The notes under the pieces were generated by a model. That model was not told the origin of the DNA, made no database searches, and saw nothing but the letters and a program-made list of their open reading frames with translations. From Candidatus Bathyarchaeota archaeon (GTDB lineage Archaea > Thermoproteota > Bathyarchaeia > Bathyarchaeales > Bathycorpusculaceae), in the NCBI GenBank assembly GCA_963739305.1, contig CAVTZU010000020.1, positions 64,001 to 128,000 of the forward strand: a stretch of DNA of 64,000 nt, written 5' to 3'. The position numbers and the translations under genes were made by a program. Shown in pieces: positions 339-59,858 of this stretch. Each line of letters starts with the position of its first letter. Position 1 is the first letter of the stretch.

Positions 339-361
339 TCTTTCGCGCGCGCCAGTCTGCG

Positions 362-580
362 TTAGTTTTGTCTCTTGAGATAGGCGACGGTGAACATTCT
401 GCCGTCTGCCAGGCGGATATCTTGGATGGCGACCAGTTCCCACCCTTCATCGCCCAGGTCGTTCAATTCATGTTGGACACTGTCCATCACTGGCTTGCTG
501 CCGACTTGGAAATGGTCTGAATGAATCTGCGTCTTTATCGGGATCACCTTATACTCCCACTTAACCAATTCAAATGCCAC
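362..580 (-). CDS. DUF4177-like small protein
   Basis: KWEYKVI...LNDLGDEGWELVAI...AYLKR pattern. Confidence 0.8.
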   Translation of the reverse strand: MAFELVKWEYKVIPIKTQIHSDHFQVGSKPVMDSVQHELNDLGDEGWELVAIQDIRLADGRMFTVAYLKRQN

Positions 581-711
581 CCTTAAACACAGACGATATT
601 CTAGTTAGAGAGTAAAAACATTTGCTCGCAAAACACGATTAGCGCGCGCTCCTCTAACGCTTCTTTCCTATATACGCGGGGTGAAAATCGTGAAAACAAG
701 ACAAGGTTTTC

Positions 712-1440
712 TCAGCTAGAGCCCTTGTTCCCAAACCCATTATGATGCTTTAGCGTTTCCATGTCACGGCGCACTCTCAGCTGTTTAGCCGGCCTGGAGA
801 CGGGGTACCCTAGACGGATGGCAAAAGCAATCTTCATATATTCAGGAACTCCAAGGATCCGCTTCACCTCTTTTTCCACGGCATCCCCGCTGAACACACT
901 CAATATCTGAACGCTTATCCCAAGCGACTGGGCCACAAGCCACATGTTCTCCATAACACAGCCCAAGCTAATGAAGCCCAAAACATCCCCCTCGGAAGCA
1001 GGCGCTCTTTTCCTAGAATCATAAATCACTATCAGCAGCAGCGGACTGCCTCTGATGCGTTGGTTCAGGGGCGAAGGCGTGCTCTCACGAACAGCCTTGT
1101 CCAGCCTAGCATGATCCCTCCAATCCGGCGGAAAATTGGTGCCGAGGATTCCGACCTTCTTCTGAAGCAACTCCTCTTCCGAGAATGACAGCTGCTGGTA
1201 GTTCTCACGGATGAACGCTTCCGACACACGCGACTTGATTTTTCCAATCTTCTGCAGAACCTCCTTGTCATCAACGACAAGAATTTCGAAGTTCTGCATG
1301 TTGTGAGCCGTCGGCGCCCAACGCGCCGCCTCCAGGATCTGCTTCAGGTTCTCCTTGGACACCGGACGATTCGGATCAAAAGGAACCCTCATTGACCGTC
1401 TCTGCTCAATGATTTTCAAGACATCAGCCATAACCATCAT
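712..1440 (-). CDS. Nitroreductase family protein
   Basis: RRSMR, ILEAARWAPTAHNMQ, ENMWLVAQSLG, IRLGYP motifs. Confidence 0.9.
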   Translation of the reverse strand: MMVMADVLKIIEQRRSMRVPFDPNRPVSKENLKQILEAARWAPTAHNMQNFEILVVDDKEVLQKIGKIKSRVSEAFIRENYQQLSFSEEELLQKKVGILGTNFPPDWRDHARLDKAVRESTPSPLNQRIRGSPLLLIVIYDSRKRAPASEGDVLGFISLGCVMENMWLVAQSLGISVQILSVFSGDAVEKEVKRILGVPEYMKIAFAIRLGYPVSRPAKQLRVRRDMETLKHHNGFGNKGSS

Positions 1441-1675
1441 CTCCCGACTTAACCACTCGCGCCTGTGATTTTCCTCTAGATGAATTTTCGCATATAAGCC
1501 TACTCACACGGTTTCATAATCTAAGCTGGCGGCCCCACATCAATCGGTTCGCGAAGAAAGCGCCGCAAAATCCTTCTGACGACCGTGCTATAAAAAATTG
1601 TGATTTCAAACAGTTTTGCCGCGCGCTAAAGGCTTTAAGTATGTTCAGCACCAAAAATGGAAGGCAGTGGTTTGT

Positions 1676-2203
1676 TTGAAGGACACGGAACTAAAGCTGA
1701 TTTCTGAGCTGCTGAAAAACAGTCACAGAAGTGACAGAGAACTCTCACGAGCTTTAGGCCTGTCTCAACCGACGGTCTCGAGACTCAGAGAAAAACTTGA
1801 GAAAGAGGGCTACGTCAACGAGTTTACGGTGATACCGAACTTCAAGAAGCTAGGTTATCATATGTTTGTCTTAACTTTCTTCACGTGGAAACCAGGTCTT
1901 GGCAAGGATGAAAAAGAAGAAGCTAGGAGATGGGCGCTTGAACAGTCGTCTTTGGTTGCGCCTAACGTCGTTGTTATTGAAAGGGGCATAGGCTTTGGCT
2001 ACAACTCGTTCATGGCTTCATTCCACAAAGACTATAACTCGTACACGGAATTGATGAATCAAGTGAAGAATAACCCGTACTTGGACAGGGCTAGGCTTGA
2101 CAGTTTCATCGTCGACCTTGACGATGAAGTTCACTATCGATATCTGACGTTTTCGACTCTTGCCAAACACTTGTTGACCTTACAGGAACCGGAGAAAAAG
2201 TAA
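1676..2203 (+). CDS. Lrp/AsnC family transcriptional regulator
   Basis: wHTH SDRELSRALGLSQPTVSRLREKLEKEGY; likely TTG start at 1676. Confidence 0.9.
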   Translation: MKDTELKLISELLKNSHRSDRELSRALGLSQPTVSRLREKLEKEGYVNEFTVIPNFKKLGYHMFVLTFFTWKPGLGKDEKEEARRWALEQSSLVAPNVVVIERGIGFGYNSFMASFHKDYNSYTELMNQVKNNPYLDRARLDSFIVDLDDEVHYRYLTFSTLAKHLLTLQEPEKK

Positions 2204-2522
2204 TAGATGCTGGAAACAAGGTATTTCTGCGCGCGCTAACAGACACACAATGAACACGCAACCACTTCCCCCTCCCATATATATTGGACGTGAGAAGCGA
2301 GGGATCGATAGCTTTCTACCATGCTTTTGTGAATCGTGTTGACTTAGCGTGTGCACCTCATTAGAACGATCTTCGAATTGCAGCGTCCGCTGGTTATCGA
2401 ACAGTTGCCGCGTGTTTGTGGCGGCAGAATGACTGTTGATAAAGGCGAACGATGCGGGTCATCGTTGCGTGAATAATTTTCTGAAGAAAGTGTGTTTGGG
2501 CGAAAAAAGGCCTGTGTTTGTT

Positions 2523-2816: not shown

Positions 2817-2992
2817 GTATGGTTCACCTCCTAAGCTCACGTGATTCATGGAATCCGGTTCATGTTGAAGTTGCTGTCTCGCAGATGGTTAGGCACTGCT
2901 ATCAGATAAAAGTCTTCTTGCGACCAGCAGAATGTCTCTTGATTTTTCATTTACGACTGAGATGATTCTCGTGTGACGCGCGTAGCGCGCGC

Positions 2993-3205
2993 GGGTGGGT
3001 TATTCTGGCTTTCGTGTGTCTTGTAGCTTTTTCTTGGGGGCTGTATATTCTCCTGTACTCAGGATTGGACGAATCAATCAGGTTTGCACTACTGGCTATC
3101 GGAGGAGTCGGAGTGATTTTTCTTATGGGTATGACGGTGCTACTGGTCATTTGGTATCACAACCCGCCCCCACCAAAACGAGGCAGGATTAGCGCGCGCA
3201 AATAA
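2993..3205 (+). pseudogene. Two-TM membrane gene fragment bracketed by GCGCGCGC sites
   Basis: Hydrophobic reading WVILAFVCLVAFSWGLYILLY...VIWYHNPPPPK with no clear start/RBS; motif at 2985 and 3192. Confidence 0.4.
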
Positions 3206-3220
3206 CGATATATCAAATAG

Positions 3221-3288
3221 TAGAATATTCCTAGCGATAGAATATTCTTAGAAATGGAATACTCTTAGTCATAGAATATTCTTCGGTA
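3221..3288. repeat. Four 17-bp tandem units with palindromic GAATATTC core
   Basis: TAGAATATTCCTAG at 3221, TAGAATATTCTTAG at 3238, TGGAATACTCTTAG at 3255, TAGAATATTCTTCG at 3272. Confidence 0.9.
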
Positions 3289-3346
3289 GGAAGAATCTAT
3301 AAAAAAGTTCTATAGCATTCTTCTAACGATCGTTCTATTTGATTGG

Positions 3347-3577
3347 GTGAACAGTACGGTTAACTGTCCGCGATGTGGAAAGACCCTGACGAAAGAGAGT
3401 GGCAAGAGTCAGTACTGTTGTGAAAACGAACATTGTCCAGTCTTGTTTGTGCGCTCGCCGGCAAACCCATTCAAGAGAAGAGTGGTTTTCGAGTCCTCCG
3501 TGAGTGGGGCAATAATCAGAAAAATCGAGAAAGCAACTGCTCACGAAATTTCACTTATTCGCTCAACACGCGCGTGA
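3347..3577 (+). CDS. Small Zn-ribbon protein
   Basis: CPRCG...CCENEHCP; upstream AAAAAGTTCTATA promoter-like element. Confidence 0.65.
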   Translation: MNSTVNCPRCGKTLTKESGKSQYCCENEHCPVLFVRSPANPFKRRVVFESSVSGAIIRKIEKATAHEISLIRSTRA

Positions 3578-3796
3578 TTAGCCCGCCCTATGTGGCGCGC
3601 TCTTCGTCACTGTGCAGATGCTTTACCAATGGATATTTACCTGAAAGATCGGCTGCAATTCTATCGATACCGTCAGTGCTTCCATCTTCTACGATCAATA
3701 CTATGTGCGAGTTGGTGATCTCTTAAAAAAAGCCTGGGCCGTGAGTGAGTAGTCGCACGCTAAGACTCAGTTGGAAACAAAAAAGGGCCTCTATTG

Positions 3797-4063
3797 CTAA
3801 GGAAAGATACGCCAGAGAGCCATCTGCACCCGTGAAAATGCTCTAAAGAACACGGAGCGCTTTTTGTAGAGCACAAACGCAAGGGGTATGACCAACAATA
3901 GGAAGAGAATTCCATACTGTGATAGGAAAACTGAAACCTGATTGATTGGCCCTATTTGCCCTCCTACCGGGTTCGGTGTCGGAGACGGGCTCGGCGACGG
4001 AGATGGTACGCCACTTTCGCTTGGTCCAGCCTTGACGTTCAAACCGTCTACCTTTCTGTTCAA
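3797..4063 (-). CDS. Small membrane-anchored protein with Pro/Ser linker and C-terminal TM plus basic tail
   Basis: PSPSPSPSPTPNPVGG followed by hydrophobic helix and YKKRS. Confidence 0.5.
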   Translation of the reverse strand: MNRKVDGLNVKAGPSESGVPSPSPSPSPTPNPVGGQIGPINQVSVFLSQYGILFLLLVIPLAFVLYKKRSVFFRAFSRVQMALWRIFP

Positions 4064-4188
4064 GATTTTCCCCGCAAACTACTGCATATTGATCACTATA
4101 AAAAACTTTGCATGATGCGCTATTGCATAAGGTGAGCTTAGACAGCCTTTTTATCGTGAACAATCGACTAGAACTTAGAGTGCTCGGA

Positions 4189-5523
4189 ATGTCGAAGTAT
4201 TCACTCAGTTCTAGCGTTGTTCTCAGATCTGAACCTCAATACTATGACACCTACGCAGCGTTCGACTGCAAGAAAGTTGAAACCGAATTCCTGACCAAAG
4301 ACGAGTACATTATCCTTGAGAACGTCCACAACAAGCCAAAAACTGTGCCTGAGATCTCAGAAGAACTCGAGATAGATAGCAAAACCTGCGAACGATTTCT
4401 GAAGCGTATGACCGAGCAGGGGTATGTCAAGGAAGGCGGCGGTTCTCCTGAGCCAATCCTATTAGAAAGGGAAAAGATCAACCCTGAGCTTTTCAAACAA
4501 TTCGGTCTCCCTTTCCTGTCAGCGCCAACGACCGTCGACGTCTTCATCACGGACCGTTGCAACTTGAAATGCGTTCACTGCTTCGCAAACGGGGATACAA
4601 GAAACAGTACTGAGCTTTCTGTTAACGATATGGAATCGATCTTCAACCAGCTGGAAAGAATGGGGGTTTTCGAAGTCAGAATTACAGGCGGCGAACCCCT
4701 TCTCCATAGTGAAATAGAGAAAGTTATTCTGACCCTGAAACAGAGGAGGTTTCGAAAGGTAATTCTGACGAATGGCACACTGCTTGACGAGACAATAGTC
4801 AAGATGCTCAATGAGTCAGGGATGATTCCAACGATTTCGCTTGACGATTCGAACGCTCAGGGATTCGACCTCTTCAGAGGAGTCAAAGGAGCCTTCAACA
4901 GGACAATCGCTGCCTTAGAGCTTCTGCAAAGAAGCGGAATTGAGTACGGGATAAACTGCTGCTTGCACAGAGGCAACTTGGACAGGTATGAGGAAATCAT
5001 AACCCTCGCTGAGAAACATGGAGCTCGGCGCATAGCATTCTTGCATCTTGAACCTGTGGGGAGGATGAAAAACAACTTGCAGTTCCTTCCATCCTACAAA
5101 GAATACGAGTCGATGGTGCCCGTTCTATCATTGGCAAGATCACATCACAGAAGGATAGATGTTGCCTTAGACGTTTTCCTGCATTGTTATCCTCTGAAAG
5201 AATCAGTCCTCGAAGCCAAAAAGGGGTTCATTTCTTGTCAGGCTGGCAAATCAAAGATGTCGATAGGCAGTGACGGTTTCATATACCCTTGCAACACCGT
5301 CATATCAGACCCGCATTGGCGCATGGGCAACATCGGGAACGAAAAGATCTCGGATATATGGTTCTCAAAAAGATGGGCCTTCTTCAGAGGCGAGGTAATG
5401 ATAAAGAGTCTGCAGAAATGCAGCGAGTGTAGCAAGAGAGCAAAATGTCAGGATTTCTACTGCAGGCTCCTTCCATACGCTACAAGCGGAAACCTTTTCG
5501 GGCCCCATCCCAAATGCGCATGA
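4189..5523 (+). CDS. Radical SAM/SPASM domain protein with N-terminal winged-helix (RRE/PqqD-like) region
   Basis: CNLKCVHC, ITGGEPLL, LTNGTLL, SPASM CQAG...GFIYPC...CSEC...C...CR. Confidence 0.92.
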   Translation: MSKYSLSSSVVLRSEPQYYDTYAAFDCKKVETEFLTKDEYIILENVHNKPKTVPEISEELEIDSKTCERFLKRMTEQGYVKEGGGSPEPILLEREKINPELFKQFGLPFLSAPTTVDVFITDRCNLKCVHCFANGDTRNSTELSVNDMESIFNQLERMGVFEVRITGGEPLLHSEIEKVILTLKQRRFRKVILTNGTLLDETIVKMLNESGMIPTISLDDSNAQGFDLFRGVKGAFNRTIAALELLQRSGIEYGINCCLHRGNLDRYEEIITLAEKHGARRIAFLHLEPVGRMKNNLQFLPSYKEYESMVPVLSLARSHHRRIDVALDVFLHCYPLKESVLEAKKGFISCQAGKSKMSIGSDGFIYPCNTVISDPHWRMGNIGNEKISDIWFSKRWAFFRGEVMIKSLQKCSECSKRAKCQDFYCRLLPYATSGNLFGPHPKCA

Positions 5524-5608
5524 TTCTTTTCCGGGTCAATCCGCAATTAGGTTCCATGCTAGGCCGGATGATGGAAATTGTACAAATTCCAGATTGACTT
5601 TGATTTGA

Positions 5609-6608: not shown

Positions 6609-6905
6609 ATGACATCTCAAGAAGCTACGGTAAGAGTTTACGTGCTAGTGGAAATTCAGCCTGGAAAAGAGAAAGAGTTTGCCGAAAATGTCATTTCGAA
6701 AGGATTCATTCAAGACTCAAAAGTGGAGAGGATGGATTTTGTTCATGGATCTTTTGACCTCGTCGTCGTGCTTAACGGAGCGATGAAAGACGTAGATGCG
6801 AGAGTGATGGCGATGAGGAAATCTCCGTTTGTGCGAAGGACGGAAACGCTGATTTCTTTCGAAATGTTCAATTGGGAAGACCTGACGGGTAGACTGAACG
6901 AGTGA
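6609..6905 (+). CDS. Lrp/AsnC ligand-binding (RAM) domain protein
   Basis: VYVLVEIQPGKE...VHGSFDLVV...VRRTETLI. Confidence 0.8.
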   Translation: MTSQEATVRVYVLVEIQPGKEKEFAENVISKGFIQDSKVERMDFVHGSFDLVVVLNGAMKDVDARVMAMRKSPFVRRTETLISFEMFNWEDLTGRLNE

Positions 6906-6929
6906 ACCTGAAAGAGTCAAGTCACGCGA

Positions 6930-7150
6930 GCTAGGAATGGAGTTCGTTTTCGCGCGAGCTCTTTGAATGCAGATAGTTGCAGCAAACAATGCCGCCACCG
7001 TCAACAGAGGCAGAATCACATACGACGAATATTCAGGCACAAATTCGTTTCCGAAAGCGTAGATCTTATGATCCATAGAGTCTGCGTAAACACAACCGCC
7101 AGCAACAGCAGGAGAAGATAACACGTGGCTTCCTGTTGTGTAATTCCACA
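6930..7150 (-). pseudogene. 3' fragment of PQQ-type beta-propeller surface protein with PEF-CTERM-like anchor
   Basis: WNYTTGSHVLSSPAVAGGCVYADSMDHKIYAFG then VPEYSSYVILPLL; begins abruptly at GCGCGCGC. Confidence 0.75.
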
Positions 7151-7158
7151 CGCGCGCG

Positions 7159-7263
7159 CTAAATGGTTCCTTCTGCCCTAACTGGTTGAATGTTAAATGC
7201 CAAAGTCAACATGCTTGTTAACAATAGAATGAACATAACTGCAGAAAATATTCGCTTCAGCAA
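7159..7263 (-). pseudogene. Orphan signal-peptide fragment of the beta-helix gene family
   Basis: MLKRIFSAVMFILLLTSMLTLAFNIQPVRAEGTI*; paralogous to starts at 18895 and 23740; stop TAG created at the GCGCGCGC junction. Confidence 0.85.
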
Positions 7264-7424
7264 TCCCCGTTCCCCAACATACATGGGTGCAATCGCTGGA
7301 TATGAATTGTGAAAAAATCTTCTATGACACTTCGATTGGTCTAGAGGTCACGAGTGAAACGCTAGCGCGCGCACTGCGAAGGCAACCGCAAGTGTTTTAT
7401 TGTCACTATCATAGAACTCAGTGC

Positions 7425-10825: not shown

Positions 10826-13800
10826 CTAATGTTTTCCAAAGTTGTTGGCAAGATGATTATGTCAAAGATGTCCACTTCGTTGTCATGGTTGAGGTCTGCG
10901 TGACTGTTCCATCTCGGATGCCCAGGATAAGACCCGAATGCAGATGCCGCTTGAACCGCGTCAAGAATGTCTACGACGCCGTCAAGGTTTAGGTCTCCAG
11001 CAATAGGAAGATACTGTCTCTGTGGCAAAAGAGGATAATTGTCACGATTGTATGCGTCGATAACATACGGTGTATCGCCTATTCCGTCACTGCCAGTTTC
11101 GTTTTGACATAGCCCATTGTAGAAATCAGTGCCAGTGTAGTCACTCCAGTAATTGCCGCCAGAAGGATAACCATTGTCCCATTTGTTGCTAGAAGAGTTT
11201 GCGAGAAAGACTTGATCTGAGTTATTTATGAAATTGTTGTGATTAAAAGTATTGTCGTGCACGTCAAGATCTTCTATTTTGACACCCAGCGAATTGTTCT
11301 CTATTTCATTATCGATGATCGTATTGAAAGCGCAATATAATGGGGGGATTGCACCGGAATACAATTCAATTCCATTGCTACAGTTTCTTATGGTGTTGCT
11401 CCTCAGGGTATTGTTTTGTGATTCTGATAGGACTAATCCACAATAGCGCGCGCCCGATATGGCGTTATTGTATACGATGTTAGCTAACGATCTAAACAGA
11501 TAAAGACCAGTACTAGTGTTGACCACGGTGTTACTGTAAAGTGCATTCCCATTCGACTGGCCTGCATGGATACCAAATTCAGTGCACGCGTCCAGAAAAT
11601 TGTCGTGTATGATGTTGTCACTGGATTCCCAAAGGCTGAGGCCATATTCATCATGAATAAAAGCGTTATTACATATGATGCTGTAATTCGAAAACGACAA
11701 CTGAATGCCAGCGTCAAAAGAATTGGATCCACTATTCTGTGCAGTAAAACCCGTCACTGTTACATTGTCTTCTACTATCTTCACAACTGCTCCATAATTA
11801 CTTCCATCTATAATCGTCGCGTCCCTGCATTCTCCAATAAGCGATATGCTCTTGTTCACAACTACGTGTTCCGTGTAGGCTCCGTTTCTGACAAAGATTG
11901 TATGTCCATTCACAGTCTCTGGAGCATCGATTGCAGATTGGACAGTCAGATAGACCAGACTTGTGTTGAGATTTTGAATTGAGCCATAAAGATGAATCAA
12001 CGGATAGTTATCTATATTGCTGGCGTCAATAACACGTGCTGAATCTCCTATTCCATCGCTCCCAGTCTCGTTCTGATAAGGACCATTGTAGGCGTCTATG
12101 CCTGTGCAGTCGCTCCAGTAGTTGCCGCCAGAAGGATAACCACCTTCCCAAACGTTTTCAAGAGAATCGCTAGTGGAGACCTGAGGGCTATTATTAACAA
12201 AACTATTATGAAAAATCATGTTGTTTGACGACTTGAACAATCGAAGCCCATCATTATCGGTGTAGGCTACTGTATTGTCTGTCAAGACGTTATTGTTGGA
12301 TAACCAAGTCAGCAGAATGCCGTAGAAGAGGTTGTCGGTTACGTTGTTGCCTGAGATAATATTGCTAGATGAGCCATAAAGAATGATGCCGTCACCGTTG
12401 TCTGCCACGTTGTTACCTCCTATGGTGTTGTTAAGTGAGTCTTTGATATAGATGCCATCCCATCCTGCGACTCTCACATTGTTGTCTAGAATAATATTGT
12501 TAGACGAACTAAGGAGACTAATGCCGTTCAAGTTGTCTACTACCTTATTGCCAAAGATAGTATTGTTGGACGAGCCGGAAAGCATGATGCCAGAAAGCCA
12601 ATAATATGCTCTACCGCAATTCTTTACCGTGAATCCACCAAACTTTACACCGTCCAATACTGTAACAGTATTTCCATTCAACCTGCCATCGATAATTGTG
12701 GTATCTCTGTTTTCTCCAAAAAGCGACACGGGTTTATTGACAACAATGTTTTCGTAATAGGTTCCTGCCTCAGCGAAGAGTGTGTGCCCTTCTAACGTTT
12801 CGTTTGCGTCTATGGCTCCTTGAATTGTCGCGTAGCCCAATCCAGTGTTAATATTGTGTACTGGCAGAGGGCTCCAAGGATGTATAAGCGGATAACGGTC
12901 TTTGTTGTCAGCATCAATAACGTATGGTGCATCTCCTATTCCGTCGCCATTCGCGTCCACACCAGAATAGTCACTCCAATAGTTACCGCCACTTTGATAA
13001 CCATCATCCCACACATCGCTAACAGACGCTGCGACATATGCTTGTGGCCTCCTCACGTTTCCGAAAAAGTTATTGTGGAAAATGGTATTATTAGAAGAAA
13101 CCATGTTTAGGCCATACTTATGATTGCTTGTTACATTATTCTTGATTATCAAGTTCTCGTAAGAAGACTCTAGCAGGACGCCATCATCCGTATTATCTGT
13201 TATTGTGTTGTTAGCAATAAGGTTATGATTAGAAGAGTGCAACTCGATACCGCTGTAACCATTCTCGGCAATATGATTGCCAATAACAGTGTTATTGCTG
13301 GCAGAAGATACAAACCAAATACCGCCCCAACCATTGCTAGTTATGGTATTGTTGCTTATAATGACATTTTCTGAGTAATCCCAACCATAGAATTCGACAC
13401 CATTCCGAACATTATTCTCTACGGTGTTGTTTACTATGTTGTTTTTCGAGCTCGAAAATCTTCCACTCACGCCATAACTATTGTGGCTTATGTTGTTGCT
13501 CACTATGTCGTTGTTCTTAGAGTAACCTAAGTCAATGCCGTAATTATTGTTCGTTATAGCGTTGCTTGCAACGATGTTGCTGTTAGAGTCTTTCCATAGC
13601 AAAATTCCAAACATTTGATTGTTGGTTACGATATTACCATAAATCGTGTTGCCAACTGAGTAGTTCAAGAACATACCGTATTCAAAATTCGTAATCTGTG
13701 TTCCCTTGATGGTAACATTACTTCTGCCGTTTAAGAAGAGACCATAACCAGTCCTTGTGCCTTGAAGTGTGTATCCGTTTCCGTCAATTATCACGTTGCT

Positions 13801-18895: not shown

Positions 18896-19040
18896 TCCCC
18901 GTTCCCCAACCTACATACGTGTAATCGCTAGATATGACTTGTGAAACAAACTTCTATTGCACTTCGATTGGTCAGAGGGCACGAGTGAAACGCTAGCACG
19001 CGCTAAGTCGTTAATAGAAGCGGCAATGAAACCCAGGAAG

Positions 19041-23740: not shown

Positions 23741-23901
23741 TCCCCGCTCCCCAACTTACATAGGTGTAATCGCTAGATATGACTTGTGAAGAAATCTTCT
23801 ATGGCACGAGTACTTGCCACAAATAAGAGTGGTTGCGGTAGTGCGCGCGCTAAACCATGTGAAAAGATAACTGCAACGTACTTTTGGTACGCTTGAGTTT
23901 C

Positions 23902-35018: not shown

Positions 35019-36107
35019 TCACTTCTTACGAGAGGCTCTGGTTGCAAGTAGGGTAATTCCGACTCCGATCAGAGCGGATCCAGCGCCAAGTAGGAAAAGC
35101 AAGACAAGCATTTCAGTGGGCAGAATAACGATATACTTCGTTGTGGAACTCGAAGGCGGACTAAAGTCTTCCACTGCAATCATGACGTCTTTCGTCAGAG
35201 ACCCAAGGTCTCCTTGATAAGTCAGAACAGTGAGCCATGCTCCGTCTGGAAGCAGTTCGCTTAATCTCAGGTCAACCTTTGATAGTTCTCCCGTTGAAAG
35301 CTGGAATTGTATGGGTTGCGAGATCGTTTGAGACGTTTGGTAGTAGGCAAGGTTCATCGGATACATGACGTTCTCCAACTTGCTTTCAGTAAGCAGAAAA
35401 AGCGTTATCTTCCCATCACCACCAACGGGACTTGTGATCAGAAGCGGATAATACAAGGTGCTGGAGTTGAACCTGTAGACTATTGGATCCATGCTTCTTT
35501 CCTCAGCCTGAAGAGTTACAAGGTCCAACGCGTAATACCTGAACCCTCTTGATACGTAATCTCCAACTGCGGATTGGAACTTGCCCAACGTAATGTTCTG
35601 ATCCACGCCGCTTGACAGGAGGAAATCGTTTGCCCAGTTGATCAAGGCAGTCGCGTCAGCTGCCATAACAACGGTGATGTTGTGGGCACCAATTTCCTCT
35701 TGGAAAACCACGTCTACGCTACCTCCTCGGGCACCCATTGTCGTTCCAAAGTAGAGCCTGTCGACAGCTTCTGTCCATATCATATCCTGAATCTCCTGAA
35801 AAGATTGGAACGATCCAGCTCCGATCTCGGGCTTCGAAGGAAGGGGAAGAATCTCTAACACCATTGTCTGCGCGCTCGCCCTCACATCAGTAGACAGCAT
35901 CAAGATTTCCTCATTTCCGTTCCATGCCACGATAGCCTTCTGCCCCGGCTCGTAGATCGAGACGCCGGGAATAATCGGGAGTCCACCCCTATCTGCATAG
36001 ACCAAGGGCAACAAGATACTGACAAGCAAGACAAAAAGCACAGAAGCCAAGGTTATTCTCAACCTGAACCCCACACCGTATATTTTCCCAGTCGCGCGCG
36101 CGGACAA
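35019..36107 (-). CDS. DUF2330-like secreted/membrane-anchored protein
   Basis: ADRGG..., QKAIVAWNGNEEILML, ILPLPSKP, YYPLLITS; C-terminal TM. Confidence 0.75.
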   Translation of the reverse strand: MSARATGKIYGVGFRLRITLASVLFVLLVSILLPLVYADRGGLPIIPGVSIYEPGQKAIVAWNGNEEILMLSTDVRASAQTMVLEILPLPSKPEIGAGSFQSFQEIQDMIWTEAVDRLYFGTTMGARGGSVDVVFQEEIGAHNITVVMAADATALINWANDFLLSSGVDQNITLGKFQSAVGDYVSRGFRYYALDLVTLQAEERSMDPIVYRFNSSTLYYPLLITSPVGGDGKITLFLLTESKLENVMYPMNLAYYQTSQTISQPIQFQLSTGELSKVDLRLSELLPDGAWLTVLTYQGDLGSLTKDVMIAVEDFSPPSSSTTKYIVILPTEMLVLLFLLGAGSALIGVGITLLATRASRKK

Positions 36108-39329: not shown

Positions 39330-39462
39330 GTTCCCCCAGTTGGAATTGTTAAATTTCGTTAAAAGTCTTGCTCAAACGCTCTCACAACATGCTTTTCAAG
39401 CAATGGAGCCATTTTGCAGCCGCATTCCTTGGCGCGCGCTCTTCGCTCCAGCATACTGAGTG

Positions 39463-41368: not shown

Positions 41369-42665
41369 ACTTGCGCGCGCAGCTTTCAAATTTACCCCGA
41401 CTGTCTACCAAGAACGTCTTTTAAGAGACAAGAGCAAACGAATAGTCGTAAGATGGAGCAGACAGGCAGGGAAGACAACTACTGTTGCGTTGAAGGCGCT
41501 GTGTTTTGCCCTCTCGAATCCCAAGACGCTCACTCTGATTGTTGCTCCTTCGCTTCGACAATCGATGATCATGGGAGATCGCGTCGAAGACTTTCTCGAC
41601 CAATTGCCGTTGAGGTTACGAAGAAAAATTGTCGCCAAGGAGCAGCGAACTGTAAAGCGGTTCAGGAACGGCGCTCGCATAATCATATTGCCAAATTCGC
41701 CTCAGCTTCTCAGAGGGTACACCGCTGATCTCGTCATTCCTGATGAAGCCAACTTCTTCAACGATGACGAGCTCGTCTTCTATAGCGTGCTTTACCCCAT
41801 GCTTGCCACAACTGACGGGATTCTCATTGTTCCAAGTACGCCGTGGAACAAGGACAGCGTATTCTACAGGATGTGCAAAAGCGATGAGTTCAGCAAGCAC
41901 GTTGTGACCTGCGAAGACGTTGTGAAAGTTGGCCTTGTCAAGCAAAGCTTCATCGACCAGATGCGTCAAGAACTGCCTGAAGAAAGGTTCCGTAGAGAGT
42001 TTTATGCCGAGTTCATAGAGGACGCCGACAACTGGCTTACTCAAAGCCTGATCGTCAACTGCATTGACAGCCAGCTTGAACTCTCCGATTTCCATTCTGT
42101 TCTTCAAGGCAATTTCTACATTGGAGTCGATTTTGGAAAACATCAGGACCACAGCGTAATCATCGTAGTTGACAAATCCACGAAACATCTTCGTCTGGTT
42201 CATGCGCACAGATTTCCTCTGAAAACAGACTACGCAAGCGTGATCGGCTACATTAGAAGTCTTCGAGACCGTTGGCACTCCGTTCGAAGCGTTTACGCTG
42301 ACATAACTGGTGTAGGAGATTACATCGTTGAAGACATGACCAAGAGCGGAATAGCCAACGTTATAGGAGTACCATTCACGATCAGCAACAAAGAAGAAAT
42401 GGCAACGATCACAAGGGAAAAGATGCGTGCTGGCGAAGTGAAGATTCCATATTCGCCTGCGAAAACTAGTTCTGACATAGACTTCACGGCCGAGTTGAAC
42501 GTGGAAAAGTTCGAGTTGTTAAAAACAGGTCATTTCAAGTTTGCACATCCAGAAGGCTCGCATGATGACGTCTTTTGGGCCACCTGCTTAGCCATCTACG
42601 CGGTGGTGAAGCAGCCCGTATCATTAGGCATGATTGGTTTTGGACCGGTAGGAGACAAAGCCTAA
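41280..42665 (+). CDS. terL: Terminase large subunit
   Basis: SRQAGKTT, LRG, IPDEA, STP, nuclease GVDFGKHQD and HDD. Confidence 0.95.
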   Translation: MKQRQKCKMKISKQELYSTGRIQIPQDPIELARAAFKFTPTVYQERLLRDKSKRIVVRWSRQAGKTTTVALKALCFALSNPKTLTLIVAPSLRQSMIMGDRVEDFLDQLPLRLRRKIVAKEQRTVKRFRNGARIIILPNSPQLLRGYTADLVIPDEANFFNDDELVFYSVLYPMLATTDGILIVPSTPWNKDSVFYRMCKSDEFSKHVVTCEDVVKVGLVKQSFIDQMRQELPEERFRREFYAEFIEDADNWLTQSLIVNCIDSQLELSDFHSVLQGNFYIGVDFGKHQDHSVIIVVDKSTKHLRLVHAHRFPLKTDYASVIGYIRSLRDRWHSVRSVYADITGVGDYIVEDMTKSGIANVIGVPFTISNKEEMATITREKMRAGEVKIPYSPAKTSSDIDFTAELNVEKFELLKTGHFKFAHPEGSHDDVFWATCLAIYAVVKQPVSLGMIGFGPVGDKA

Positions 42666-53886: not shown

Positions 53887-53890
53887 AAGC

Positions 53891-54898: not shown

Positions 54899-54904
54899 CT
54901 TCAG

Positions 54905-55189
54905 ATGACGATCAAAATTAGCCAAGTTCAGACAAGCAGCGGCGAAATCGTGTTGACAGTGACCTATGATAATCCAAAGGGCTCGGGAAAACTCGTGTCG
55001 TATTCCCTTCATTACAGAGATCTTATTGATCGTCTTGTGCAGCTCAAGAGTCTTTTGGGACGAGCCCTAACACTCACAGATGCGCAGCAGGCTCTCGTAG
55101 AAATCATCAATGAAGTCCGCGCTAATCAGACAGGCGTTCCTCAAAACTTTGATTTCACACCTTACGTCGGGGTTGAACTTGAGACATGA
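54905..55189 (+). CDS. Hypothetical virion-associated protein
   Basis: AGGTGA RBS, operon coupling. Confidence 0.6.
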   Translation: MTIKISQVQTSSGEIVLTVTYDNPKGSGKLVSYSLHYRDLIDRLVQLKSLLGRALTLTDAQQALVEIINEVRANQTGVPQNFDFTPYVGVELET

Positions 55190-55542
55190 CTGTGACGCTT
55201 GACGGCAAAACCTTGGATTGTAAGCGTCTGTCTGAAGATTACGTGGCTATTAGCGTTCAATGGGACGCATGGGTCAATGCCGCGTACAAGAGGAAAATCA
55301 AGGTTTTTGGGGGAGCGCGAAAATGGAGGTTAGAATGCGTGGAGAATGGAGTTGTGTGGGCGAGCAGTAGCTGCAAGAGTTTTGAAGACTCTTTAGCGGC
55401 AGGATCAGCATTGACGTTTGCGGTTACGGATGAAGTGCGGGTGATTAGCACTTCAGTCTATGTTTTGGACGTGTCGATCGACGCTGCAGATCTTGGAGGA
55501 AAGAATATTCGGTATTTCACGTTAACTCTGCAGGAAGCATGA
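55186..55542 (+). CDS. Distal-tail-like protein
   Basis: VTLDGKTL...YFTLTLQEA pattern. Confidence 0.55.
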   Translation: MTVTLDGKTLDCKRLSEDYVAISVQWDAWVNAAYKRKIKVFGGARKWRLECVENGVVWASSSCKSFEDSLAAGSALTFAVTDEVRVISTSVYVLDVSIDAADLGGKNIRYFTLTLQEA

Positions 55543-55545
55543 TTT

Positions 55546-55749
55546 GTGGCTGCGGTGAAAGTGTTGGAGAAGTTTGCGAAAGAAAGGAAGTTTCGCCAGG
55601 AGTGGCTTAAGGCCTGGGAGCAGCTAGGGGCTCGGATTCTCCGGTTTCCGAAGTACATGCAAGCCATCATTCTTGAAGACGTGAACACGACCGTTGAGAA
55701 TCGTGTTGCGACTATGGAAATGATTCTTGAAAGCATGAAGAGACGGTGA
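55546..55749 (+). CDS. Small helical hypothetical protein
   Basis: Co-oriented ORF. Confidence 0.6.
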   Translation: MAAVKVLEKFAKERKFRQEWLKAWEQLGARILRFPKYMQAIILEDVNTTVENRVATMEMILESMKRR

Positions 55750-55758
55750 TCTGTTTTG

Positions 55759-56153
55759 ATGAGACATAAAGATGGTTTAGAGAAGCAGTTGGCGAGTTGC
55801 AGTCCTGGAGACTTGGTTTGCGTGGACTGGACAGATGCGAGCATTGGGAAGAGTTTGGGCAGCGGAATGGAGGTTGATGTTCCAGTGAAGAGCTGGGGCA
55901 TCTTTGTGGGTGCGATAGGGAAAAACAGCAAACATATCATGCTGGCTCAAAACAATTTTGCGTACATGCGACGGCGTCTATGATATTGATTACACTGCGA
56001 TTCCGGTTGCATGGATCAACATCCTTGACGGTGCTTGTCAAAAATCATTTGGCGCCTGAAGTTGCTAAGCATCTGTTAAATAGTTTCTTGATGGGCGGCA
56101 GACGTGCCCGATCCAAGGCGCAGCAGCGAATCTTCAATCATTCAACAGAATAA
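55759..56153 (+). CDS. Hypothetical protein (V.W.DA motif), two frameshifts
   Basis: GDLVCVDWTDAS...SWGIF continuing DGVYDIDYTAIP and ...FLMGGRR in shifted frames. Confidence 0.55.
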
Positions 56154-56163
56154 GCTGTTTTTG

Positions 56164-56419
56164 ATGAGAGATTGGATCAAGGAAGCTCTTACTCATAGAG
56201 CGGGGCCGAATAGCTCTCGTGGAAGGGTTAGAGTTGTGGTTGAACCGAGCCCGAAACTCGTTCTCTTAGTCAAATTTACGTTTGCTTGTATCGGTGTGCT
56301 TTCCTGCCTAGAAGCCGCTAAGTATTGCGTTTTTGGGCTCGTGGAATTATGAGGTTTTCGCTACGCTCTCAGGCTTGATCGGTACAGTTACCGGTGTACT
56401 GATCGGTCGTCATGCTTAG
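56164..56419 (+). CDS. Small two-TM protein, holin-like (one frameshift)
   Basis: LVLLVKFTFACIGVLSCLE + FLGSWNYEVFATLSGLIGTVTGVLIG. Confidence 0.5.
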
Positions 56420-56546
56420 GGCTGAAAGCGGAGAGAGCTCTCCGTACTGCAAGTTTGAGCCTTCTCCTGTTTCGTGAATCCCTTCTTTGCGGGACCCTTG
56501 GAGCTCTCTTCGCCAGCACACATTTGCGGTAATAGAGGTGATTTTC

Positions 56547-57026
56547 TTGGCAACTGTAAATGAGAAATTGTTAGCAGGTATCTTGGTTGCGGTAGTCATC
56601 ATTCTGGGCAGTGTAGTTGCCGTCTTAATGATGAATCGCCCGGTCTCGAGTACCGGAAAGATCAAGGCTATCAACTGTGAAGTCTGGGCTGATGTCAACT
56701 GTACGATTAAGCTTCAGCAGATCGATTGGGGCGTCTTGTCGCCAGGCGACGTCGCTGCGGTAACGCTTTGGATCCAGAATATCGGAAACATCAACGGCAC
56801 TTTAAGCTTCAACGTGACTGGCTGGCAATTCACGACGGTTACGCCGAACTCTACTGTGCCGGCCAACGCGTCAAGCTACCTGGTTTATTCATGGAATTAT
56901 TCGGGATCTGTCTTGAAACCGTTTGACGTCGTGCCCGTTCAGATGCAGCTTGCGGTTGCGCCTACTATTCAGAACATTGGCCAATTTAACTGCACGATCA
57001 ATATCTGGATCGCCGAGTTCAAGTAG
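56547..57026 (+). CDS. Membrane-anchored beta-sandwich protein
   Basis: N-terminal TM; IDWGVLSPG...IQNIGN. Confidence 0.7.
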   Translation: MATVNEKLLAGILVAVVIILGSVVAVLMMNRPVSSTGKIKAINCEVWADVNCTIKLQQIDWGVLSPGDVAAVTLWIQNIGNINGTLSFNVTGWQFTTVTPNSTVPANASSYLVYSWNYSGSVLKPFDVVPVQMQLAVAPTIQNIGQFNCTINIWIAEFK

Positions 57027-57064
57027 GCTTTCTTTTCATGGTCATTTCTGCGTTTTGACAGGAG

Positions 57065-57514
57065 GTGAATGCAACGAGTCAGTTTAAAGTCAACAGTATA
57101 CTAGCGGCGATAATCATCATCATAACGGTCGCTTTCATGTCCCTCGAGGTTCTGATCTGGACTGGTGAGCTTAAGGTCGAGGCGCTTGGAAACTTGAGTT
57201 ACGGACTTGATAAACTGCTTGAGAACCCGGCTTTCGTTGGGTTACTAGCAACATTGATAGTCGGCGCGGGCAGTGGTTTCATGCAGAACGTCTTCAAGAA
57301 GAACGACACTTTTGACCTGAAGAAATTCGCTGAAACATTCTTCTATTACGTGCCACTGCTGATTCTCATCGGGCAATTTCTCCCAGTGAATTACAGTGCA
57401 GTTCTGCTGTTCGTCATCGATGCGTTCAGCCGCGTCCTGCTAAAACTCGTTCCGACTGCGACGGTTCCAACTGCGCCGTTGCCAACCGCGGCTGCTCCAA
57501 CTGCCGCAAAGTAG
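57065..57514 (+). CDS. Multi-TM membrane protein
   Basis: GGAGGTG RBS/start; 3-4 hydrophobic helices. Confidence 0.7.
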   Translation: MNATSQFKVNSILAAIIIIITVAFMSLEVLIWTGELKVEALGNLSYGLDKLLENPAFVGLLATLIVGAGSGFMQNVFKKNDTFDLKKFAETFFYYVPLLILIGQFLPVNYSAVLLFVIDAFSRVLLKLVPTATVPTAPLPTAAAPTAAK

Positions 57515-57519
57515 CACCT

Positions 57520-57556
57520 TTCATTCCCCCTTTTCTTCGGGGTTCCCTTTTTGTTC
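57520..57556 (+). terminator. Probable terminator
   Basis: CCCC-TTTTCTT-CGGGG stem followed by T-rich tract. Confidence 0.45.
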
Positions 57557-57645
57557 ATTCAATCGTCGAAAGTGAATACTATGAGTTTAGGAAAATCGAA
57601 GCGTAAAGAATTGCAGAAGAGAGTTAACAGGAAGAAGTGTGTGCG

Positions 57646-59127
57646 ATGAACCGTAGACGTGAGTTCTTCTGGATCCGGCAGGTTAAGAGGACTTACGATC
57701 GGAGCCTTGGAAAGTTTTCTTTCAACATTTCCTACAGCACAGCAGTGAGTATCACGCCTAGGACGACTGCTGTTGCAGACGCGTTCGGGCTTGGCCTTGA
57801 TGAATCGCAGAAGTTCACGGTTCTTGATGTTGAATTGAAAATAAAGCCAGGTGACATCGTCTACGTGACGGGCGACAGCGGCAGCGGCAAATCTGTCCTT
57901 TTGCGAGCTATCAAGCAAGACCTGGACCAAGAAGCTTTAGACATCGAAGACATCGTCGTCGACCCGACGAAACCGTTGATCGAGACCGTCGGCAAAACAG
58001 TTGAGGAAGGCCTAGAATTACTGGCCAAGGTTGGCTTATCGGACGCATTCCTTTTCCTGCGAACCTTCGAGGAACTGAGCGACGGCCAAAAATACCGTTA
58101 CAAGATTGCCAAGATGATGGAGAGCAAGCCTCGGTTTTGGCTACTGGACGAGTTTGCCGCGACTCTGGACCGGGACACCGCGAAGATTGTTGCTTTCAAC
58201 CTGCAGAAATGGGCTAGACGGGAGGGCAGATGCGTGGTTGCAGCAACAACGCACAGGGATCTTTTCGCAGATTTGCAACCCGACGTTCATGTCCACAAGC
58301 GTTTTGGCAAAGAAATTGAAGTCACATACAGTCGTCAACACGCGAGTGCTGAGTGCAGTCTCTTGAAAGACATGCGAATTGAGAAGGGTTCAATGAAGGA
58401 ATGGGAAACGCTTTCCCACCTGCACTATCGTAGTCACAGAGTTCCGGCGCCAAGAAAAATCTTCTGCCTCAAGCGCGGTCGCGAAGAAGTATGCGGCGTA
58501 ATCGTGTACAGTTATCCTGCAGTGACTTGTTTCGGGCGAAGGTTGATGCTTCCAAGAATGAGCATTAAAGAGCTGAACACCAGGCTGAGTAACATTAGCA
58601 GAATTGTTGTTCATCCGAAATACCGGACGATAGGGCTGGGCTCAAAACTCGTTAGGGAAACGCTGGACCTAGCTGGCACTCCCTATGTTGAGATGAGTGC
58701 GGTGATGGCAAAGTACAATCCGTTCGCTGAGAAAGCCGGCATGCAAAAGGTTGCCGTGCAACAGCCACCGAAAGAAGCTGTGAAAATGCTTCAGGTCCTT
58801 GAAAACCTGAGGTTTAATCGTGAACTGCTAGGAAGCTCGAAGCATATTGCCGAAACCCTGAGGGGGCTGTCTCAAACTGAAGTTGCCCAATTGAAAACTG
58901 CCTTTGCCAAGTTTCGGCACACTAGGTTCAGCAAATCTTTCAGCCTCAGCCTGCCCTATGGTACGGTAGAAATGTATAGAAAACACATTCAGAAAGCAAG
59001 TTTGGAGAAGCTTGCTCTCTTGATCAGGATTTGCGGTTTCTTGATGCAGACTAAACAGTATCTTTTCTATCAAAGTGAACATGCAAATCCAAATGAAAAC
59101 CACGGCAAGAATCAGCCAGCGCCCTAG
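57646..59127 (+). CDS. ABC-type ATPase fused to GNAT acetyltransferase (COG2401-like)
   Basis: GDSGSGKS, LSDGQKYR, LLDEF, TTH; GNAT ISRIVVHPKYRTIGLG. Confidence 0.88.
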   Translation: MNRRREFFWIRQVKRTYDRSLGKFSFNISYSTAVSITPRTTAVADAFGLGLDESQKFTVLDVELKIKPGDIVYVTGDSGSGKSVLLRAIKQDLDQEALDIEDIVVDPTKPLIETVGKTVEEGLELLAKVGLSDAFLFLRTFEELSDGQKYRYKIAKMMESKPRFWLLDEFAATLDRDTAKIVAFNLQKWARREGRCVVAATTHRDLFADLQPDVHVHKRFGKEIEVTYSRQHASAECSLLKDMRIEKGSMKEWETLSHLHYRSHRVPAPRKIFCLKRGREEVCGVIVYSYPAVTCFGRRLMLPRMSIKELNTRLSNISRIVVHPKYRTIGLGSKLVRETLDLAGTPYVEMSAVMAKYNPFAEKAGMQKVAVQQPPKEAVKMLQVLENLRFNRELLGSSKHIAETLRGLSQTEVAQLKTAFAKFRHTRFSKSFSLSLPYGTVEMYRKHIQKASLEKLALLIRICGFLMQTKQYLFYQSEHANPNENHGKNQPAP

Positions 59128-59273
59128 CAAAAGCTCCATCGGCAGTACTCTGCAAGAAAAAAAGACCGGGGGGTAGGGTCTTTTAGACTGGTTTTCAATC
59201 AAAACCCATGTTGAGTAGGCCCTCAGTCAACCAACTATTACTCCCATTTTTCTGCAAGCCGCTCAACGCGCAC

Positions 59274-59654
59274 TTATTCGATTGGACTGTTTCGGTCGAA
59301 GTAGCTTATCTCCTTCTCAACCTCAACCTGAAAACCAGACTTCACCAAGAAATCCTGCACCGTATGCACGTAGCTGTCGTGCGCGCCATAAGACACGTCC
59401 ATCAGCCCCTTTCCAGCCGCACACGCGATTAACTCGATTCTCGTCTCACCGTCAGAAACCTCTTCCAGCGTGACCAACAACGCAGCATCGTTCTCCACCC
59501 TGAAAAAGTAGTGCTCACCAAGTATCACTCCTCTCAGCGATTCACCAGGCTTGCCGACCTTCCTCGCGTAAATGTCGCCGAACTCCGAGCTTAAAGCCTC
59601 AAACACTTTGTCAAAAGAGTCCCTAACCATGCACCTCAAATAGTGAGAGGTCAT
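59274..59654 (-). CDS. Hypothetical protein
   Basis: 126-aa ORF with RBS; GEHYFFRV motif. Confidence 0.65.
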   Translation of the reverse strand: MTSHYLRCMVRDSFDKVFEALSSEFGDIYARKVGKPGESLRGVILGEHYFFRVENDAALLVTLEEVSDGETRIELIACAAGKGLMDVSYGAHDSYVHTVQDFLVKSGFQVEVEKEISYFDRNSPIE

Positions 59655-59858
59655 GCCTGATTATCCCTCAAGTTAATCTGTTGCAGTTCATACGCTTAAA
59701 AGAGTTGTTCAAATTGTCCAGCGCGCGCAAAGTAGCCTGGATCCGTTTCGGCGCAGCCATTTGAATATGTCTCTCTTCATCTTGTTCTGTTTTGTGTACC
59801 ATGGTGTTCTGATGCATAGGATTTTGAACAACCGAGTAGATCTAACACCGAGAGTCTT

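Follow-up and report, generated by a model that had tools for sequence, protein, structure and literature searches.

The stretch of DNA described here (the window) comprises 64,000 nucleotides of the genome of a Candidatus Bathyarchaeota archaeon (assembly GCA_963739305.1, contig CAVTZU010000020.1, positions 64,001 to 128,000; C20:64001-128000 in our contig numbering) and harbours 14 perfect copies of the octameric palindrome GCGCGCGC. Bathyarchaeia are abundant in soils, peat and sediments, and few of these archaea have been cultivated. The genome holding the window (G000) measures 2,317,032 bp in 36 contigs, with an estimated completeness of 97% and an estimated contamination of 7.8%. It was compared with the complete genome of a sister species (G001), a single contig of 2,346,764 bp with 464 GCGCGCGC sites. 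Gene positions are those of our own crude codon-usage gene finder, which called 2310 genes in G000 (80% coding). Comparison of these and related genomes indicates that GCGCGCGC is probably the joining site of accessory DNA blocks in one Bathyarchaeia genus, both within its species and between them. The sites in the window are given below together with two degenerate copies. An arm is a TA dinucleotide directly flanking the octamer, the 12-mer with both arms is TAGCGCGCGCTA, and entries are perfect octamers unless stated otherwise.

345..352 (run CGCGCGCGC, 344-352): intergenic, with one gene end 6 nt away and the stop of a DUF4177 gene (362-580, minus strand) 9 nt away; module 353-641 has its left edge here
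642..649: left TA arm; intergenic; separates the DUF4177 module from module 650-2228 on its right, which holds a nitroreductase gene and an Lrp-like winged helix-turn-helix (wHTH) gene
1617..1628: degenerate copy with right TA arm; two mismatches to the 12-mer
2229..2236: right TA arm; convergent spacer, 25 nt beyond the stop of the plus-strand wHTH gene (1616-2203)
2985..2992: left TA arm; surrounded by a long stretch of non-coding DNA; pairs with 3192, 207 bp apart
3192..3199: left TA arm; a match to relative G004 begins exactly at 3199
7152..7159 (run 7151-7159): right TA arm
7365..7372: left TA arm; right edge of 7160-7364 and left edge of module 7373-9089, which holds a primase-polymerase gene
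11446..11453: coding; inside the NosD/beta-helix/dockerin open reading frame (ORF) 10795-14022, minus strand
18994..19005: copy of the 12-mer with one mismatch and both TA arms; intergenic
23843..23850: right TA arm; intergenic, flanked by two minus-strand genes
36094..36101: in ORF 35019-36107 as called (minus strand), among its first codons
38121..38128: convergent spacer; the minus-strand gene 38136-39296 ends 7 nt away
39432..39439: between two minus-strand genes, 23 nt past the stop of the glycosyltransferase-like gene 39463-40239
41373..41380: in the terminase gene (41304-42665, plus strand), within its conserved N-terminal coding part
59721..59728: intergenic, past the end of a head-tail gene cluster

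Our gene calls place 11 of the 14 sites between genes and three within ORFs (11446, 36094 and 41373). Site 36094 may sit just upstream of the true start of its ORF, and site 41373 is probably not a boundary; the terminases of relatives align from residue 5-15 onwards and cover the region of this site. A preliminary description of the window had counted 14 perfect sites, placed about 11 of them at gene ends or between genes, and seen none in a phage-like cluster or an AT-rich island. All three statements were borne out, no perfect site being present in 41381-59720 nor in the AT-rich stretch at ~30-34 kb. Its account of longer arms also held, the single arms and the near-sites at 1617-1628 and 18994-19005 being present, with the correction that the flanks show a preference for TA and are not stop codons as such.

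Enrichment, exact form and distribution of the octamer

In 100 dinucleotide-preserving shuffles of the window the octamer occurred 0.51 times on average and three times at most, against the 14 copies observed. The 12-mer, with up to two mismatches allowed, has 15 matches in the window where 1.33 are expected. Genome-wide, G000 harbours 359 sites spread over all contigs. Their count on both strands, 718, was compared with Markov expectations of 50.8 (order 3), 135.5 (order 4), 392.7 (order 5) and 656.7 (order 6); the enrichment claimed earlier holds under orders 3 and 4, with an excess of 14.1-fold and 5.3-fold, respectively. At both of these orders GCGCGCGC is the most over-represented octamer of the genome (z of 94 and 50), and the octamers ranking next are its shifted or flanked versions. 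GCGC by itself is not enriched in G000.

The excess was found to depend on both the length and the phase of the alternating G/C run. In G000, runs in G phase fall geometrically from length 3 to length 7 (18324, 3701, 910, 241 and 78), after which the number jumps to 178 at length 8, against 24 for the C-phase octamer CGCGCGCG. The sister species displays the same pattern (231 against 36), and no excess was found for the opposite phase. All runs of length 9 and 10 in G000 (96 and 48) contain the G-phase octamer, and runs of at least 11 number only five in G000 and two in G001. Each flank shows a weak preference for TA (-2 T 43%, -1 A 46%, +1 T 50%, +2 A 45%). Both arms are present at 29 of the G000 sites, the third flank base is nearly free, and no conservation was detected in the G000 flanks past the 12-bp palindrome. 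One-mismatch variants of the octamer number 1046 where 550 are expected, the C-to-T classes being ~2-3-fold enriched. The dependence on length and phase, the dyad symmetry and the symmetric flank preference together point to recognition by a symmetric protein dimer. An all-against-all BLAST comparison of the 100 nt on either side showed that the surroundings of most G000 sites are unique, and the motif is therefore not a miniature inverted-repeat transposable element (MITE). No high-copy insertion sequence (IS) or other repeat family was found in G001 or G000. A recurrent spacing of ~1291 bp between site pairs was excluded as a repeated element, one duplicated pair apart.

The distribution over the lineage was determined in 40 relatives of G000, comprising 10 genomes of the same genus and 30 of other genera. 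All 10 same-genus genomes carry GCGCGCGC, in 29-464 copies, and 28 of the 30 others hold only 0-30 copies, the exceptions being G024 (227) and G030 (53). The signal is thus lineage-specific at genus level, in line with the host specificity that had been proposed. The 12-mer was found in 8/10 same-genus genomes and 3/30 others, and the same word read backwards was found in none; the two same-genus genomes without the 12-mer are 89% and 65% complete. G024, a 1.6-Mb genome from another genus of the same family, harbours 209 copies of CGCGCGCG besides its 227 of GCGCGCGC, often in longer overlapping runs, which may represent a different, phase-independent alternating-GC phenomenon. The thermosome of G000 has its closest named relatives in metagenome-assembled genomes of Candidatus Bathyarchaeota/Bathyarchaeia (82-88% protein identity), which bears out the archaeal origin given in the preliminary description. 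At thermosome loci from 80 Bathyarchaeia records the motif occurs mainly in the closest ones, which adds little weight.

Within G000, 301 of the 359 sites (84%) fall between genes, 11 overlap the 3' end of a gene and 47 are in coding sequence; of random positions 19% are intergenic. The sites are clustered, neighbour distances of 50-1500 bp being far more frequent than under a Poisson model, and some non-coding stretches hold at least five. In the sister species 407 of 455 motif runs do not lie wholly inside a coding sequence, and a 50-kb histogram revealed clustering of the sites in islands.

Segment ends and synteny breaks at the octamer

GCGCGCGC occurs exactly where segments that were recently transferred or duplicated end, and seldom within them. 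The core nucleotide identity of G000 and G001 has its mode at 70-74% (core genes ~72%), and ~128 kb is shared at 80-98%. A set of 100 high-scoring segment pairs (HSPs) of at least 84% identity and at least 100 bp was compared with a set of 913 HSPs of lower identity. In the high-identity set a motif run lies at most 3 nt from 31 of 200 ends for G001 and from 23 of 194 for G000, against 26 of 1826 and 20 of 1809 in the lower-identity set. When an equal number of pseudo-sites was placed at random in 1000 permutation trials, with the intergenic/coding split kept, 2.2 ends on average and 9 at most lay this close, where 31 were observed. Inside the high-identity HSPs only 5 motif runs occur in 81.7 kb (0.061 per kb), whereas the 300 nt outside their ends hold 97 (1.62 per kb), the genome mean being 0.194 per kb. 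Repeats within a genome behave likewise: 35 of 438 repeat ends in G001, and 16 of 167 distinct internal repeat ends in G000, lie at most 3 nt from a motif.

The spacers of G000 were classified with 1285 reciprocal best hits between the two genomes (median amino acid identity 74.8%), which gave the following occurrence of the motif.

Neighbours adjacent in G001 (syntenic): motif in 5 of 676 spacers, 0.11 per kb
Both neighbours with orthologs, not adjacent: motif in 22 of 197 spacers, 0.54 per kb
One neighbour with an ortholog: motif in 85 of 662 spacers, 0.76 per kb
Neither neighbour with an ortholog: motif in 110 of 667 spacers, 0.91 per kb

The octamer is genus-specific and nearly limited to the non-coding DNA of the non-syntenic, accessory genome. 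The preliminary description had asked whether the motif coincides with synteny breakpoints and had inferred that it delimits swappable gene cassettes. The spacer classes show the coincidence, and the inference is supported by segment ends, synteny breaks and a pair of empty and filled alleles (see below).

The window itself offers several such junctions. Its first 12 kb matched five same-genus genomes only as pieces ending at sites: query 1-344 stops at site 345, 360-647 lies between 345 and 642, 7054-7159 ends at 7152, 7160-7329 follows it, and 7371-9089 starts at 7365. Five further genomes matched 347-637 and 7173-7371. The first 9 kb thus consists of pieces split at sites, each found separately in other species at 85-94% identity. 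At site 345 the homology of G008, G001 and G002 (90-91%) stops at window 338-344, and module 347-647 occurs alone in G005 (88%) and G003 (89%). At the junction homologous to 642 the sequence shared with G003 ends at a shorter CGCGCG remnant. The nitroreductase block ends at a motif in G002, and in G001 it has a motif at one end and another 74 nt past its other end. To the right of site 3192 matches to G004 cover query 3199-3234 and 3271-3581. The neighbours of site 7365 are shared with G004 (86%, query 7371-9089) and G003 (85%, query 7173-7371), and at the homologous junction G004 carries a copy with two mismatches. A gene fragment encoding PQQ-type beta-propeller repeats (ORF 6717-7151, minus strand) is truncated exactly at site 7152, and beside the same site the contigs of sequencing run X5 diverge at 7148 (all sequencing-run evidence consists of Logan contigs, and the runs listed included no RNA run). 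In run X1 the summed depth differs from block to block, with ~18-25 over 3601-6400 and 110-190 in several blocks flanking it; this depth includes other organisms and is not used as evidence. A ~120-bp 'repeat' beside 7152 was excluded as a DNA element, since it is a PQQ-type protein repeat.

Among the individual events outside the window is an insertion whose empty allele has a single site and whose filled allele has a site on either side. Contigs C2 and C3 of G000 are 96-98% identical, and C2 carries a 4.2-kb insert with a site at each end where C3 has a single site. The insert encodes a cohesin/dockerin protein and a solute-binding/dockerin protein; contig C6 shares its left flank and ends at that point. 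In G001 a 585-bp block, containing a small ORF that we take from its translation to be YhbY-like, is present at two loci with 100% identity, (C)GCGCGC(G) at both edges and unrelated flanks. A block of 518 bp is 98% identical between the two species (G000 C15:111401-111914, G001:858684-859200) and has sites at both edges in both genomes. It holds two lysine/arginine-rich ORFs of ~29 and 42 amino acids, each with its own AT-rich upstream region. Two paralogous loci of G001 carry the same small block in opposite orientation beside the same neighbour.

Motif-rich islands carry paralogs of thermosome, HSP20, Alba, TBP, TFB and SSB-like genes, as well as primase-polymerase and integrase genes. Mosaic multi-copy islands were found at C13:65-78 kb, C8:34-45 kb and C11:75-80 kb of G000 and at 868-874 kb, 1415-1419 kb, 1662-1665 kb and 1674-1681 kb of G001. 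They contain additional informational genes (TBP, TFB, Alba and an SSB-like OB protein) and chaperone genes (thermosome and HSP20), with 85-98% nucleotide identity between the species. At C14:15780 of G000 a motif run lies 13 nt past an apparent tRNA 3' end, read by eye from its T-arm and CCA-like end; tRNA 3' ends are classic integration points. A 7.3-kb inverted duplication with arms ~95% identical occupies a contig end at C10:109989-117278. Its centre (~113643) lies between two inverted motif copies, one perfect and one with one mismatch. This duplication could be real or an assembly fold-back, and it is uninformative for the motif, its centre not being at a motif.

Probable joining of accessory blocks and rival explanations

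If GCGCGCGC is the joining site of accessory blocks, DNA of ~0.2 to >4 kb would be inserted, removed, duplicated, inverted and exchanged at the octamer. In a typical block a promoter would be followed by one or a few genes, with a site shortly after the stop codon. Breakage and rejoining would take place inside or beside the palindrome, which a protein may read as a symmetric dimer. A one-site circle or a two-site fragment could join a chromosomal site, regenerating a perfect site at each junction; as each event adds a site, sites would accumulate in islands. Decayed copies may be left by imprecise events and point mutation. The enzyme may be a tyrosine recombinase encoded in the islands, or a restriction-like nuclease that cuts rarely and acts together with ligation. 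Module shuffling bounded by sites looks like a known kind of behaviour, of which the GCGCGCGC version is apparently new.

In these genomes one 8-bp word predicts the places of breakage and rejoining, and it tells which DNA has passed between species with a core identity of ~72%. If an enzyme reads GCGCGCGC, the octamer would be the smallest known site delimiting mobile gene modules as well as a new archaeal recombination tool; it provides a concrete, testable recombination substrate. Even without an enzyme the motif is a practical marker that delimits accessory modules in metagenome-assembled genomes (MAGs) and flags recent transfer. It also bears on the question of HIP1, the octameric palindrome of cyanobacteria, in that an over-represented palindrome can be a by-product of recombination rather than of selection on chromosome structure.

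Several observations weigh against a joining site. Only 12-16% of the high-identity segment ends fall at a motif. Candidate indels between adjacent orthologs are motif-free at both boundaries in 43 of 45 cases in G000 and 61 of 65 in G001, and larger candidates also mostly lack the motif. Many of these candidates are probably differences in gene calling, with equal 'filled' and 'empty' lengths, and not true indels. As most core-genome indels are motif-free, the motif is a feature of accessory islands and not a general route of gene gain. Three relatives lack the motif at the point homologous to 345 and have theirs ~105 nt further on, from which we infer that some junctions are imprecise or that the site came with the incoming DNA at this position. 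The searches described below tied no enzyme to GCGCGCGC: integrase counts are equally high in motif-poor genera, and the two integrases found in motif-dense neighbourhoods (C26-type and C15-type), rejected as genus-wide enzymes for their patchy occurrence in the genus, are kept as leads only. A nuclease cutting its own genome needs a protecting methyltransferase, none of which was found, and this argues against the nuclease variant. To our knowledge, a 12-bp palindrome is far shorter than the sites of known tyrosine recombinases. Furthermore, every gene position depends on the home-made gene caller, and the evidence is entirely comparative, no reaction intermediate having been seen.

A more far-reaching version of the joining site can be put forward only tentatively. 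It holds that the genus possesses a rearrangement system with a dedicated enzyme, which either belongs to no recognised recombinase family or uses a known fold anew. Such an enzyme would cut and rejoin at the minimal 8-bp GCGCGCGC, and the DNA between two sites would form a mobile cassette that is excised, inverted, copied and passed between species, as in an 'open integron' without attC, attI or IntI.

The main rival, which we consider rather unlikely, is that GCGCGCGC is a passenger element, i.e. a transcription-unit end signal, insulator or operator carried along by accessory genes or mobile elements. The motif would then lie at block edges since blocks are whole transcription units, and recombination would proceed by other means. 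The position of the sites relative to genes fits such a role: distances from stop codons peak at 0-20 nt downstream (57 site-to-stop distances in G000), and sites are twice as dense in convergent spacers (1.11 per kb of spacer) as in tandem (0.56-0.58) or divergent ones (0.55). That most segment ends and most simple indels lie away from motifs is likewise in its favour. A possible binder is the expanded family of the Lrp/AsnC-like wHTH protein encoded at window 1616-2203 and at 10 other G000 loci. These proteins of ~195 amino acids, with an N-terminal Lrp/AsnC-like wHTH and an unassigned C-terminal half, have 3-16 copies per genome of the genus. Their copy number rises with the motif count (Spearman 0.80 in 41 genomes, 0.62 in the 30 outside the genus), a correlation uncorrected for kinship and genome size and a lead only. 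A passenger element accounts for the position after stops; it does not explain the coincidence of segment ends and motifs within 3 nt (~14 times the permutation mean), the single copy in the empty and two copies in the filled allele, or the gene truncated exactly at a site. Moreover, the ends of the 100%-identical duplicate lie inside the motif on both sides, and 72 G000 sites are in divergent spacers, which contain no gene 3' end. The 40 nt ahead of start codons are depleted of sites and upstream distances are broad, unlike the peak expected of an operator. Finally, the spacers after conserved syntenic genes are nearly motif-free (5/676).

Still less probable is that GCGCGCGC is a passive sticky or fragile sequence that needs no dedicated enzyme, its G/C microhomology favouring end joining or its tendency to form Z-DNA or a cruciform making it break. 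Some junctions are imprecise or lie at shorter GCGCG(C) remnants, as would be expected of such a sequence, and at one junction in a repeat gene the gene's own sequence already resembles the motif; that no dedicated enzyme was found is also consistent with it. Microhomology or helix structure should act equally on CGCGCGCG, which is as self-complementary and stable and has no excess (24 against 178), and better on longer runs, which are nearly absent. The excess is limited to one genus though the chemistry is universal, and a passive sequence would leave the TA flank preference without a cause. Z-DNA, which had been mentioned in connection with the alternating GC of the motif, alone fails to account for the specificity of phase and length.

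There is little to recommend the explanation that the motif resembles HIP1 in being kept abundant by a methyltransferase, a restriction-modification system or biased repair, with a role in chromosome organisation. HIP1 (GCGATCGC) is described, in the part of the source available to us, as an octamer that is 15- to 300-fold over-represented and conserved within and between ORFs (PMC5861425). As far as that part goes, it shares with GCGCGCGC the octameric, G/C-rich, palindromic form, the many-fold excess and the lineage specificity, the 14-fold excess of GCGCGCGC being at the low end of its range (PMC5861425). The C-to-T variants enriched 2-3 times and the N4/N6-type DNA methyltransferase genes present in both G000 and G001 would also fit. 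Beyond the form the likeness drawn in the preliminary description fails. HIP1 is, in the same partial account, positionally conserved and periodic within and between ORFs with a methylated core (PMC5861425), whereas GCGCGCGC is 84% intergenic, avoids ORFs and syntenic spacers and marks segment ends, and the tetramer GCGC is not enriched. The search for a cognate methyltransferase that the preliminary description had proposed recovered none. No C5 DNA methyltransferase (PF00145) was found in G000 at 97% completeness. Its one clear N4/N6 DNA methyltransferase (PF01555), a 523-amino-acid protein encoded at C28:38049-39617, is fused to an Mrr-type nuclease domain and has homologs (44-47% identity) only in G001 among the 10 genus members searched. 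A second hit, on C36, is a THUMP-type RNA methyltransferase. The methyltransferase link was rejected on these grounds; no co-distributed methyltransferase was found in the C5 and N4/N6 families searched.

An assembly or binning artefact, by which the sites would be chimeric joins between strains or species, is close to refuted: G000 is in 36 contigs with 7.8% estimated contamination and several contigs branch or end at motifs, but an 8-bp repeat would be too short to mislead an assembler, the same pattern, repeats ending at motifs included, is seen in the single-contig G001, all 10 genus genomes carry the motif, and Logan contigs of run X2, which may be the source sample, bridge sites 2229 (record 9, 2105-2534) and 7152 (record 13, 6795-7326).

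Related systems, candidate enzymes and neighbouring genes

A full-text literature search gave no published description of GCGCGCGC as an archaeal palindrome or recombination motif, in keeping with the earlier remark that none was known for this lineage. In behaviour the octamer comes closest to the dif modules of Acinetobacter and to integron cassettes, and in form to HIP1 and to an 8-bp restriction site; it lacks defining features of the first three, and no conserved methyltransferase as for the fourth was found. Plasmid dif (pdif) sites are two-armed Xer sites of ~28 bp that are read by conserved host Xer recombinases. In the parts of the sources available, dif modules of Acinetobacter plasmids are moved by XerC/XerD, and resemble the GCGCGCGC blocks in that a short site bounds accessory modules on both sides, that these modules change places among replicons and strains, and that the sites cluster in accessory regions (PMC6449649, PMC13141974, PMC12907356). 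They differ from GCGCGCGC, a perfect palindrome of 8-12 bp spread across an archaeal chromosome, in being mostly plasmid-borne according to the same partial accounts. The shuffling of modules is thus shared with Xer/dif; a two-armed site and a conserved Xer enzyme were not found, and XerA-like candidates are patchy.

Integron cassettes resemble the blocks described here in consisting of a gene with a site past the stop codon, in leaving a site on each side upon insertion and in being exchanged across lineages. Their attC sites are long imperfect inverted repeats that are recombined as folded single strands by IntI at attI, within one array, and integrons are reportedly present in archaeal MAGs. 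Unlike integron cassettes, the GCGCGCGC blocks are dispersed, form no array beside an integrase, have upstream regions of their own and are bounded by an 8-mer without conserved outer boxes. The dRS3 and intergenic mosaic elements of Neisseria, and REP/REPIN sequences with their RAYT, are repeats of 20-40 nt with a known or proposed mobilising enzyme. They are, like GCGCGCGC, short intergenic inverted repeats at gene ends that flank small mosaic units and are associated with insertions and with breakpoints of rearrangement. In GCGCGCGC, by contrast, at most 12 bp are conserved, and neither a Y1/RAYT gene nor an IS110-type gene was found in G000.

Type IIP restriction enzymes include rare 8-bp cutters, and restriction-mediated recombination occurs in vivo; their sites are normally avoided in the host and need a cognate methyltransferase. 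GCGCGCGC has the perfect 8-bp palindrome and the sharp specificity of sequence and length of such sites, as for a symmetric dimer, and cutting and ligation would regenerate the site at both junctions in either orientation. It differs from them in being enriched in its host, where no conserved DNA methyltransferase was found. Unlike a MITE or IS, it does not belong to a many-copy element in which an internal sequence is conserved between terminal inverted repeats. DNA uptake sequences (DUS/USS) are enriched in the core genome and absent from imported DNA. The trend of GCGCGCGC is the opposite, with 0.11 per kb in syntenic and 0.54-0.91 per kb in non-syntenic spacers. A simple alternating-GC tract would not show an excess only at length 8 and in G phase, without growth with length.

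Genes for enzymes were searched for in G000. The Y1/RAYT transposase family (PF01797) had no match in this genome (97% complete), and hairpin-telomere resolvases of the ResT/TelK type (PF16684) had none even at E <= 1; no serine recombinase was found. Tyrosine recombinases, with 15 matches in G000, were the sole recombinase family found among those searched. The C26-type and C15-type subtypes lie in motif-dense neighbourhoods in both genomes and score far below the cut-offs for XerA and integron integrase (54 against 265 bits for the latter). Integrase copy number was set aside as a weak correlate of the motif (Spearman 0.44 in all genomes and 0.40 outside the genus, uncorrected). Packaging by a gene transfer agent or provirus at the motif was rejected as well: the terminase occurs in only 4/10 other same-genus genomes and is thus not co-distributed with the motif, and site 41373 lies in conserved coding sequence.

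The remaining genes of the window surround the sites listed above; Rfam and tRNA scans of the window gave no matches. The primase-polymerase at 7742-9085 is a PriS/LigD PrimPol-like protein of 447 amino acids, of a kind typical of small archaeal plasmids or integrated elements, and lies in a block shared with another species at 86%. Between 9596 and 23713 six consecutive minus-strand genes encode large NosD/right-handed beta-helix proteins, several with a C-terminal dockerin. Cohesin/dockerin proteins are also encoded at C2:5976-9837, which suggests a cohesin-dockerin surface assembly in this archaeon. Further on, an 18-kb virus-like head-tail cluster (41304-59127, plus strand) encodes a large terminase (Terminase_6N/6C), a portal protein, a head-tail adaptor, a tape-measure-like protein and a beta-helix protein, with no integrase among the ORFs scanned in it. 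Related terminases were found in 24 of 41 genomes of the order, and the cluster therefore represents a common Bathyarchaeia provirus type.

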